From Alphaproteobacteria bacterium (GTDB lineage Bacteria; Pseudomonadota; Alphaproteobacteria; CAAHEQ01; UBA3637), in the NCBI GenBank assembly GCA_045605805.1, contig JAZUQR010000016.1:1-45220 (forward strand): 45,220 nucleotides of DNA, given 5' to 3'. A program made the translations under genes and the position numbers. Positions within the stretch are counted from its first letter, which is position 1. The number at the start of each line of letters is the position of its first letter. Below the pieces are notes generated by a model. The model was not told the origin of the DNA. It saw only the letters and a program-made list of their open reading frames with translations, and made no database searches. This document shows, one piece after another, positions 40,307 through 42,304 of this stretch.

Positions 40307-42304
40307 TTAAATTCCTCTGCTTGTCCTTCTGTACATCCTGCCCATCCTTGCATCAATGGCAGGTGCTAATTCACCAACCAAGGCACCGGAATCAAGATAT
40401 ACTTTCATTCCAAGCATCTGTTCCAATAATTCAATTATTCTTGTTAATCTCGCAACCACCGCTTCATTGCTGATTGATTGCGGATTTCTCATTTGTAGTT
40501 CGTTCAAATCCTCGGCAACCCTGGATAGCCATGCCCGGTTATGTTCCAAAGGAACCACCGCTTCAGCACCGGTACCTTCTAACAAGCCCACCTGCCCTTT
40601 TTCAAGAATACCGCCCCTTGCAAGCCTGGGTAATGATAATGTTGGTACAGTACCCACATTGATTCCCGGCAACTTATTTGCAAGCCGGATTGCACTGTTA
40701 ATCATGCCAATGCCCCGGTTAATGGCATTCTGTACACCTGAAATAACACCATTCATGCCTGTTCTTACCGCATTTCCCATGGCAGTGCCTATTGATGTGC
40801 CTATGGTTGAAAATCGGCTTCTAATCTGCGACCATAAGCCACTGAAGAAGGAACCCCAACCACTGAAGGCAGACCGAATATTGCTCCATGCACTACGGAA
40901 TATGCCACCAAACCATGAAGCCACATTCCCAAATGCACCACGAATGCCGGACCATATGCCGGAAAAGAAGCTTCTTGCACCATTCCACGCATTACGAACA
41001 CCATTCCAAGCTGACCGGAATTGACTAGCAAACCATGAACCAACAGAAGAAAAGGTGCTTCTTATTCCACTCCAAATGCCCCGGAAATACGCACCGGCAG
41101 ATGCCCATGTATTTCTTATAGCTGTCCATGCTGTGGAGAAATAGCCCCTAATCTGTGTCCATGCTGTGGAAGCTTCCCTGCGGATGGATGCCCATGCACG
41201 AATCCAAAAATTGCGGAATCCTTCGACATTGTTCCATAGGTATACAAAAGCAGCCACAAGCCCGGCAATAGCTGCCACCACCAAGCCAATAGGATTTGCA
41301 AGCAATACTGCATTGAAGGCAAGCATTGCAGTTCTTACCACCCTGATGGCATTGGCCGCTGCTGTCATTATTCTTCCCCAGGAAATAATCAAAATGAATG
41401 TGCCTATTGCTGTGGTAGCACCAATAATCACACCAACCCAAGCTTGAATTGTGCTTTGGTTGCTCCTGATCCATGTAACCATATCTCTGAATCTATCAAT
41501 CATTGATACAAGAAGTGGTATGGCTCTTTCTGCCATGCTTGCGATTGCATTCCGTAATGCTGTCATGATAGGCTCGCCAATTCTTCCGACTTCTGCCATG
41601 GCATCTGACAATCTTTCCTGTGCCTGCCTTGAAGCAATAATATCCGCATTGGTTTCTTTATATTGAACAGATGCAGCACTGTATGTATCATTCAATGTCT
41701 TTACTATTAAATCTTGCCTTTCTTCCTCTGTGGCAAGACCGGCAAGCTTATCATTGAAGGATTCCACACTTATTCCTGACCATTCAAGGGCATCTGCAAG
41801 GCTCCCTTGCACTTCTCCCAGGGAAGCACTGTGATTGATACCTTCTGCCAATCCTTCCAAGGGCAATGATTCACCAAAAGTGGCATATACACCTGTTAGG
41901 ATATTTGTCAACCCTGCCAATTCTTCTTCATTGTCTGCTATTTGTGCAAGCTGTTGTGATGCTTCCACCGCTTGCCCTGAATCGCCAAGCACCGCATTCA
42001 ATTCTGAATATGTGGTTTTGGCTGCTTCTGTGCTTAGTCCAACAGTTAAAAAGGCAGATTCAAGCAATCCCATTTCTGCCCTGTATTCTCTTGTACCTTC
42101 TACCGCACCGATAAATGCACCACCGATTGCAAGCCCGGCTGTTGCTATGCCTGTTGCAACAATACCGGCTACCCTTCCAATTCTGCTAAATGCACTTTCT
42201 GTTTCATTGGCCGAATTGTTCGCCCTTGTGGTTGTATCTTCAAGTGCGTTGTTCGCTTCTGTATTGTCTATTGCTATTGTTCCAAGCAATCTAAACAATT
42301 CCAT
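40307..42304 (-). CDS. Tape measure protein A (665 aa, Arg-rich and Lys-poor)
   Basis: MELFRLLGTIAIDN; LANPIGLVVAAIAGLV; 11-residue W/F repeats; PRLARGG..GAEAVVPL; ends SRGI; directly after the tail chaperones. Confidence 0.9.
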   Translation of the reverse strand: MELFRLLGTIAIDNTEANNALEDTTTRANNSANETESAFSRIGRVAGIVATGIATAGLAIGGAFIGAVEGTREYRAEMGLLESAFLTVGLSTEAAKTTYSELNAVLGDSGQAVEASQQLAQIADNEEELAGLTNILTGVYATFGESLPLEGLAEGINHSASLGEVQGSLADALEWSGISVESFNDKLAGLATEEERQDLIVKTLNDTYSAASVQYKETNADIIASRQAQERLSDAMAEVGRIGEPIMTALRNAIASMAERAIPLLVSMIDRFRDMVTWIRSNQSTIQAWVGVIIGATTAIGTFILIISWGRIMTAAANAIRVVRTAMLAFNAVLLANPIGLVVAAIAGLVAAFVYLWNNVEGFRNFWIRAWASIRREASTAWTQIRGYFSTAWTAIRNTWASAGAYFRGIWSGIRSTFSSVGSWFASQFRSAWNGVRNAWNGARSFFSGIWSGIRGAFGNVASWFGGIFRSAWSNIRSAFSGWGSFFSGLWSQIRSRFSTIGTSIGTAMGNAVRTGMNGVISGVQNAINRGIGMINSAIRLANKLPGINVGTVPTLSLPRLARGGILEKGQVGLLEGTGAEAVVPLEHNRAWLSRVAEDLNELQMRNPQSISNEAVVARLTRIIELLEQMLGMKVYLDSGALVGELAPAIDARMGRMYRRTSRGI

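Follow-up and report, generated by a model that had tools for sequence, protein, structure and literature searches.

Tape measure proteins (TMPs) are virion proteins that enter the cell with the phage DNA. Here, we describe TMP-A, a TMP that has been purged of almost all its lysine (Lys, K) and that is encoded in contig JAZUQR010000016.1 of assembly GCA_045605805.1. The whole of this 45,220-nucleotide stretch was analysed and is referred to below as the window. It is an entire circular contig of ~45 kb with ~40% G+C (GC), its first 140 nucleotides (1-140) being repeated exactly at 45081-45220, and it is a temperate siphophage. A first-pass annotation, made from the letters of the window, had reported the shortage of Lys and attributed it to strong selection acting on one TMP only.

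The nearest described phenomenon is the lysine desert, a long Lys-free stretch with arginine (Arg, R) in place of Lys that is read as protection from Lys-directed tagging. The accessible text of a review (PMC13696103) discusses such deserts in the catalytic chains of AB toxins routed through the endoplasmic reticulum, in proteins of the ubiquitin system and in Mycobacterium phage proteins, and names GC bias as an unresolved confound. It quotes a threshold of at least 150 continuous Lys-free residues, for which TMP-A has 327. As to the further condition, that composition or GC should not explain the depletion, the GC content at third codon positions (GC3) equals that of the genome, there is no silent A-to-G bias, and only Lys and Arg have shifted. 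The resemblance lies in the long Lys-free stretch and the use of Arg for Lys. The phage cases published in that text come from high-GC hosts, whereas the present genome has ~40% GC, shows no change at silent sites and comes with a built-in control in the form of Lys-rich orthologues at 70-80% identity. No Pup or ubiquitin-like system was identified for the window's host, which is assigned by binning.

Host factors that act on phage tail proteins offer a second comparison. In the accessible part of its preprint (10.1101/2023.09.04.556158), the Bil system conjugates a ubiquitin-like protein to the central tail fibre, blocking assembly or infectivity; the word 'lysine' is absent from the main text of that preprint, and the available portion of another article (PMC11601596) gives the Lys side chain as the typical acceptor in bacterial ubiquitination generally. 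Bil is comparable in that a host system acts on a phage tail protein, but its target is the central tail fibre rather than a TMP, and the Tal proteins of the window are not Lys-poor. As far as the available text of 10.1101/2025.11.03.685801 goes, the DUF4041 nuclease SNIPE contacts TMPs at injection and phages escape it through changes in the TMP. The same text gives lambda gpH as the only phage protein robustly labelled by TurboID-ManZ; a labelling enzyme in the cytoplasm can thus gain access to a TMP during injection, which partly supports the entry of TMPs with the DNA. In SNIPE, too, a host defence meets the TMP at the membrane and TMP changes give escape, but those changes, in that text, are a few local substitutions, insertions or deletions, neither composition-wide nor Lys-specific. 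Host methylation of a phage tail protein (PMC13445384) was considered as a parallel and set aside as irrelevant, since the modified residues quoted in its accessible text are Glu and Ser. Among the titles and abstract openings of the literature on TMPs, lysine deserts and TMP-based escape from defence, no Lys-purged TMP was found.

We take TMP-A to be akin to the TMPs of the TP901-1 type, with their periodic tryptophan/phenylalanine (W/F) repeats. It has in common with W/F-repeat TMPs the position of its gene between probable chaperones and Dit, a hydrophobic segment, aromatic repeats of ~11 residues and PHROG matches to TMPs. It differs in the basic residue of the repeat, which is Arg in TMP-A and Lys in 105 of its 120 closest relatives. 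TMP repeat units are treated in the accessible part of PMC3271669. The features that the argument needs first are given here, with their basis in brackets.

40307..42310, minus strand: TMP-A, tail length tape measure protein, 667 aa, 7 Lys and 49 Arg (open reading frame (ORF), counts, PHROG)
40676..41656, minus strand: Lys-free stretch, TMP-A residues 219-545, 327 aa, from QYKE to ANKL (Lys positions)
41225..41470, minus strand: hydrophobic segment, TMP-A residues 281-362 (boundaries read by eye from the sequence)
40706..41224, minus strand: W/F repeat region, TMP-A residues 363-535, period ~11, 18 Arg and no Lys
38114..40249, minus strand: TMP-B, paralogous second tape measure protein, 711 aa, 33 Lys and 12 Arg, our internal control (ORF, PHROG)

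The seven Lys of TMP-A stand at residues 98, 188, 204, 218, 546, 571 and 636. The first-pass annotation had counted by hand about 7 Lys and 49 Arg in TMP-A and about 33 and 12 in TMP-B, all four of which are exact, and its Lys gap of roughly 330 residues measures 327. The start at 42304 that it used is correct as the version beginning at M3 (665 aa, identical Lys and Arg counts), the ORF itself reaching 42310, and the two segments it had set side by side, SAFSRIGR in TMP-A and SAFGKIGN in TMP-B, are both found in the translations. R/(K+R) is 0.88 in TMP-A and mostly 0.2-0.55 in the other ORFs of the window. When the 890 ORFs of 150 aa or more from the binned genome (median Lys 7.7%) are ranked, TMP-A comes second lowest in Lys percentage and second highest in R/(K+R).

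Two other proteins stand at the edges of these distributions. Of the ORFs of 150 aa or more in the bin (G000), just one has less Lys than TMP-A. It lies on contig C20 (16248-17039, minus strand; 263 aa, one Lys, 13 Arg), is unannotated and may be either a spurious frame or a membrane protein. At the opposite extreme, the scaffold protein of the window (Pfam Phage_scaffold, 2036-2749, minus strand) holds 37 Lys and one Arg in 237 aa, or 15.6% Lys.

Our homologue search returned 3911 proteins, of which the best 120, at 67-100% identity to TMP-A, were analysed. In 105 of these 120, the protein has 37-58 Lys (median 46, with a median of 24 Arg). The other 15 are depleted, with 4 to 31 Lys, and 10 of them form one clade with 4-23. 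Across the columns aligned with TMP-A residues 219-545, Lys counts are 22-35 (mean 28) in the 105 Lys-rich orthologues and zero in the window. No other of the 120 has a Lys-free run as long as its 327 residues, and the median run among the Lys-rich ones is 61. Among 150 representatives of more distant clusters, none has at most 1.5% Lys or an R/(K+R) of at least 0.8, the highest ratio being 0.51 and the lowest Lys content 2.6%. A family-wide poverty of Lys was therefore rejected, the close orthologues being Lys-rich and no distant representative being comparable. The first-pass annotation had accepted that its reading would fall if orthologues were equally Lys-poor, which these counts contradict, or if local GC bias alone accounted for the shift.

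Such a mutational origin, through a local rise in GC, A-to-G hypermutation or acquisition from a donor of high GC, could draw on the GC content of the gene (0.457 against ~0.40 for the genome) and on the 12 of 19 K-to-R codons that are AGA or AGG, one transition from AAR. The remaining seven, however, are CGN, more than one step from AAR, and the silent sites do not follow: GC3 is 0.38, the genome value, the share of G at four-fold sites, 0.14, lies towards the low end of the 0.11-0.29 seen in 10 orthologues, and synonymous changes number three A-to-G against nine G-to-A. Asparagine and glutamate counts are unchanged, although a general A-to-G drive would lower both, and several of the Lys losses (to Q, T, I, N or A) require transversions. 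Taken together, the silent sites and the composition reject mutation bias, an account that we find barely credible. Local GC bias does not explain the shift, and the usage of Arg codons, which the first-pass annotation had proposed as a means of separating mutation from protein-level selection, speaks against the former through its CGN codons.

The shift is also confined to the one gene. In 13 other phage proteins compared with orthologues from up to 10 related loci, K/R exchange is near-symmetrical; over the same loci, TMP-A shows a mean of 19.9 K-to-R against 0.2 R-to-K changes, and 20.7 changes from Lys to other residues against 1.4 in the opposite direction. The comparison can be repeated with a sibling phage, contig C12, which is circular (28-nt terminal overlap) and falls in the same bin. 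That bin comprises 1.21 Mb in 31 contigs, and the window contig (C16) and C12 are both phage-sized and complete-looking. Relative to the TMP-A of C12 (75% identity, 43 Lys, 27 Arg), the window has 18 K-to-R and 18 K-to-other changes and none in reverse. Tested against the balance seen within the family, these 36 losses without a gain give a binomial p of 4e-11, and the other genes common to the two phages exchange K and R evenly. TMP-A is a constrained protein, with ratios of nonsynonymous to synonymous divergence (dN/dS) of 0.10-0.32 against 10 orthologues, where synonymous divergence (dS) is saturated for most relatives with DNA and is 0.56 for the closest. The purge of Lys from TMP-A is real, directional, gene-specific and independent of mutation bias. 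Selection against Lys, acting on this gene at the protein level as first proposed, is well supported by the Lys-rich orthologues and the unshifted silent sites.

What took the place of Lys depends on where it stood. At the 39 columns in which most Lys-rich orthologues have Lys, the window has six K, 18 R and 15 neutral residues (five G, two each of A, Q, I and T, one E and one N). Lys losses make up 33 of its 97 differences from the consensus, and in overall composition only Lys (-34.7, z -6.9) and Arg (+23.5, z +8.1) depart from the orthologues; Arg is kept at 20 of the 21 majority-Arg columns. The N-terminal domain has 12 majority-Lys columns, of which four are kept, two have become Arg and six neutral. 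Two of the retained residues, K98 and K546, are invariant in all 120 homologues.

TMP-A has the hydrophobic segment followed by periodic aromatic repeats that is a feature of TMPs, and in both regions the replacement leans toward Arg. All three majority-Lys columns of the hydrophobic segment are now Arg. Over residues 359-493, tryptophans are spaced mostly 7-13 residues apart, often 11, and the basic residue of the repeat falls four after a Trp and three before the next aromatic residue. In the repeat region the orthologues average 21.0 Lys and 3.9 Arg, and of its 20 majority-Lys columns 12 are Arg and eight neutral in the window. Of the Arg in this region, nine belong to a W-x-x-[IVA]-R motif and 12 are followed at +3 by an aromatic residue. 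The earlier remark that Arg occupies a position in the repeats where Lys is usual is borne out, with WxxIR or WxxVR in nine places where the orthologues have IK or VK.

Arg-Trp peptides act on membranes more strongly than Lys-Trp peptides. Arg itself might accordingly have been selected, for stronger cation-pi or phosphate contacts in W-x-x-I-[K/R]-x-x-[F/W] repeats that would tune insertion into membranes, packing inside the tube of the tail or the fit to another host envelope. This explains the repeat positions well: the 12 of 20 repeat and three of three hydrophobic-segment columns, the nine Arg placed four residues after Trp and the 12 with an aromatic at +3 all agree with it, as do five new Arg at columns formerly non-basic and small Lys changes in the neighbouring probable tube protein. 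It leaves the neutral replacements and a second case of Lys loss unaccounted for. Neutral residues (G, A, Q, I, T, E, N) took over at 15 of the 33 lost Lys, most of the Lys lost from the N-terminal domain was not replaced by Arg, the total of basic residues fell from ~70 to 56, and 105 of the 120 close orthologues function with Lys. On balance, we think it rather unlikely that Arg was the selected property.

The second case is the TMP-B-type slot of C12 (18672-20915, plus strand, 747 aa) and of genome L002 (12055-14232), whose proteins of 725-747 aa have 14 Lys and 16-17 Arg. Among the 120 best homologues of the C12 protein, the three closest (72-84% identity) have 1.7-1.9% Lys and two at 56-66% identity have 3.2-3.5%, the more distant ones having 6-7% and the median of the 120 being 6.6%. 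At its majority-Lys columns, the C12 protein has nine K, three R and 17 neutral residues. The Lys loss in this lineage is independent of that in TMP-A and brought almost no gain of Arg, which counts against selection for Arg and suggests that the factor common to the two paralogous TMPs is avoidance of Lys rather than preference for Arg. We infer that the selected property is the absence of Lys side chains, not the presence of Arg. That the purge is real, directional, gene-specific and non-mutational and also that the absence of Lys is what was selected is, taken jointly, very probable.

The probable tube protein shows a smaller change. It has 10 Lys against a median of 14, only four of 120 homologues having 10 or fewer, and its 91%-identical relative P0396 has eight Lys and five Arg, with two near-invariant Lys replaced. 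A mild reduction of Lys in this protein alongside TMP-A is suggestive only.

We reconstructed the history of TMP-A on a midpoint-rooted tree in which K and R were treated as one state, to keep the trait itself from shaping the topology. The 10 proteins with 4-23 Lys form a single clade on this tree, and their sister has 37. Outside the clade, parsimony changes are balanced (136 K-to-R against 134 R-to-K; 423 K-to-other against 393 other-to-K). The stem of the clade carries 15 Lys losses and one gain, more losses follow in three sublineages, and the path to the window has 25 losses against four gains (Fisher p 2e-4). When all 10 members of the clade are taken together, losses are only marginally in excess (44 against 26, p 0.08). 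One protein with an intermediate count, P0046, is a mosaic, its centre being 91-96% like members of the Lys-poor clade and both its ends 97-99% like Lys-rich proteins, which indicates that recombination moves Lys-poor segments between alleles. Some intermediate Lys counts come from recombination rather than stepwise change. The partly depleted proteins P0006, P0007, P0010, P0011 and P0038 are not clearly mosaics of the clade and may be convergent.

Neutral drift of exchangeable K and R, helped by recombination or hitch-hiking and with Lys itself unselected, can draw on these results, since K/R columns are polymorphic across the family with the balance just given, at least one intermediate is a mosaic, and the clade-wide excess reaches only p 0.08. 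It sits poorly with the 36 losses and no gains relative to C12, with the 25 against four on the path to the window, and with a genome whose composition favours Lys. Nor would drift be expected to leave the window with the longest Lys-free run of the 120, to spare only the invariant Lys or to remove Lys independently from a second TMP lineage. We consider it improbable.

An insert also sets some of the homologues apart. Seven of them (P0003, P0008, P0009, P0012, P0014, P0038 and P0046; 692-698 aa) have a 29-residue W/F-repeat insert after TMP-A residue 387 (window ~41150). All seven are Lys-depleted, with 15-26 Lys, and the window is without the insert, which may be a tail-length variant.

The tail genes around TMP-A, all on the minus strand, are as follows.

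42619-43053 (144 aa) and 42314-42604 (96 aa), minus strand: probable tail assembly chaperone pair, ordinary Lys (mainly gene position)
43255..43860, minus strand: putative major tail (tube) protein, 201 aa, upstream of the chaperone pair (position only; no Pfam match)
29119..38110, minus strand: two tail-tip sets, ordinary Lys, namely Dit1-Tal1-fibre at 33453-38110 and Dit2-Tal2-DUF859 at 29119-33435

TMP-A is a working tape measure protein. Its PHROG matches, phrog_1535 (E 2e-54), phrog_58 (1.3e-47) and phrog_1272 (5.8e-39), are all annotated as tail length tape measure protein, and its gene stands where such a gene is expected, with the probable chaperone pair followed by TMP-A, TMP-B and then Dit and Tal; relatives show the same gene order. 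TMP-B matches phrog_6900 (E 2.1e-85) and phrog_991 (3.1e-80); the two proteins have their first and last residues in common and are 24% identical overall. No Pfam TMP domain was found in either at E<=0.01, which we take as a gap in the coverage of Pfam and did not count against their identity as TMPs. For the chaperone pair, there is a match to Phage_TAC_7 (E 0.0089) under the Pfam cut-off; the 144-aa ORF belongs to phrog_1021, of unknown function, and the 96-aa ORF to phrog_1294, annotated as peptide methionine sulfoxide reductase. Dit matched phrog_33, and Tal matched Pfam Prophage_tail.

The presence of two TMPs had been linked to the Lys loss by the first-pass annotation, for which a Lys-poor TMP would give the phage a reason to keep both. 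The window, with its Lys-poor TMP-A and Lys-rich TMP-B, fits this idea, and C12 and L002 show the reverse pattern. The tandem TMP-A/TMP-B with two Dit/Tal sets is nevertheless found in all close relatives with DNA, those with a Lys-rich TMP-A included, so that the duplication is older than the Lys loss and independent of it. Among 17 genomes with two tandem TMP-like ORFs, both are Lys-rich in 14 (for example, 41 and 41 Lys in L004, 44 and 59 in L031, 43 and 42 in L052). The proposed link is in our view distinctly improbable. In a weaker version, having two TMPs would allow one of them to specialise, and this would depend on phenotypes.

The layout itself forms a nested tail module, present in the window (29119-42310, minus strand), in L001-L010, L031 and L052 and in C12, with a variable TMP-B/Dit1/Tal1/fibre cassette inside a conserved frame running from TMP-A to Dit2/Tal2/DUF859. 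TMP-A, Dit2, Tal2 and DUF859 are conserved together at 56-86% identity, whereas TMP-B and Dit1-Tal1-fibre vary widely. The pattern resembles the insertion of a further tail-tip cassette that has separated a TMP from the baseplate genes belonging to it, an arrangement common to the phage family. By title and abstract opening, none of the literature on phages with 'two tape measure' proteins describes such a nested layout.

PrrC and PARIS are named as tRNA-Lys-cleaving toxins, and tolerance of tRNA-Lys depletion was among the causes first proposed for the loss. A cause at the level of codons or translation, whether tRNA-Lys cleavage or ribosome-dependent toxins cutting at Lys codons, would agree with the fall in Lys codons from ~46 to 7. 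Avoidance of Lys codons does not extend across the late genes, however: TMP-A alone is depleted, the capsid, portal, TMP-B and tail-tip genes are ordinary, and the scaffold has 37 Lys in its 237 aa. No tRNA gene is present in the window. We regard a codon-level cause as extremely unlikely.

There remains the question of what would select against Lys itself. In the explanation that we favour, directional selection at the protein level has stripped TMP-A of Lys in one sub-lineage of a gut siphophage family. Where positive charge is needed, as at the basic residue between aromatics in the W/F repeats and at the edges of the hydrophobic segment, Lys was exchanged for Arg; elsewhere in TMP-A it gave way to neutral residues, leaving few Lys. 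The absence of Lys would then deny a substrate to a host factor that acts on it by covalent tagging or acylation, cross-linking or Lys-specific cleavage. Such a factor could meet the TMP at injection, when it passes from the tail into the envelope and cytoplasm, or in late infection, during its synthesis and chaperoning. Escape from Lys-directed attack is our leading idea, and attack on the injected or assembling TMP is plausible but unproven. The attack by the host is the weakest step, and with it included we would place the chance of the whole chain somewhat below even.

Our searches for a candidate agent covered the bin and part of the window, the latter for a Lys-modifying enzyme of the phage's own. 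PADLOC, run on 10 accessory ORFs of the window, found a helix-turn-helix regulator, a DNA methyltransferase and a weak mad3 match only, and Pfam, run on seven further proteins as a subset of the window's ORFs, found endolysin, scaffold, capsid, serine recombinase and replisome organiser; neither returned anything Lys-directed. In G000, a search for ThiF and JAB domains found one ThiF gene, which lies between a UvrD helicase and TrkH and looks like a housekeeping gene, and a Prok-JAB match of only 19.8 bits, below the cut-off. No Bil-like E1/JAB operon was found in G000, in a search that did not extend to Prok-E2 families and other Lys-directed enzymes. As the E2 families were not searched and C16 and C12 are tied to G000 by binning alone, a weak host link, the missing operon is weak evidence against a Bil-type cause, a candidate among those first proposed.

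We also scanned viral, genome and metagenome data for DNA of the Lys-poor relatives, and the full-length TMP-A orthologues returned were all Lys-rich. The best partial matches are L150 (84% identity over 355 residues, 13 Lys and 10 Arg) and L178 (81% over 120 residues). Some words of the TMP-A gene occur in 19 of 21 listed sequencing runs, which come from 10 studies labelled as gut, feces, bovine gut, wildlife or sediment metagenomes; none of the runs listed with such words was RNA. One run alone, X1, holds half or more of them. When X1-X4 were compared, contigs of X1 covered 40799-42272 with 33 other letters and 39722-40727 with 16. X1 may be, or be close to, the source sample and is therefore no independent support.

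Several of these results weigh against a Lys-directed host factor as the cause. To the missing operon, the weak host link and the marginal clade-wide excess must be added recombination, which weakens the tree-based loss counts, and the fact that the gene context of a Lys-poor TMP-A comes from one genome only, the window. The same phage keeps a Lys-rich TMP-B (33 Lys), capsid, scaffold and tail-tip proteins, so that an attack would have to be specific to TMP-A, or tails built with TMP-B would have to serve other hosts. The net charge of TMP-A has dropped from ~+6.5 to ~0, and together with the five new Arg this means that charge and Arg content may also be selected. The observation is stronger than the first-pass annotation knew, and no cause of the selection has yet been identified in the data searched.

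A wider version of the reading can be stated. Gut anaerobes may carry an undescribed defence, or a means by which resident phages exclude others, that acts on the Lys of TMPs through conjugation, acylation, cross-linking to the cell wall or Lys-specific cleavage during injection or assembly. Siphophages would have escaped it by purging Lys at least twice independently, in both TMP slots, and the two cassettes would give one protected and one ordinary tail. We put this forward as a speculation that is unlikely to hold in full.

Lysine deserts are usually argued from composition alone and are confounded by GC; here, a low-GC phage family supplies its own control. With many orthologues at 70-80% identity holding ~46 Lys and the clade 4-23, TMP-A is a clean case of selection against Lys in a virion protein, and it draws attention to the tape measure protein as one that Lys-directed host action may target. 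A Lys-directed agent, should there be one, would add a new point of attack to those used in phage defence; if there is none, the case would inform on the role of the basic residue in the W/F repeats.

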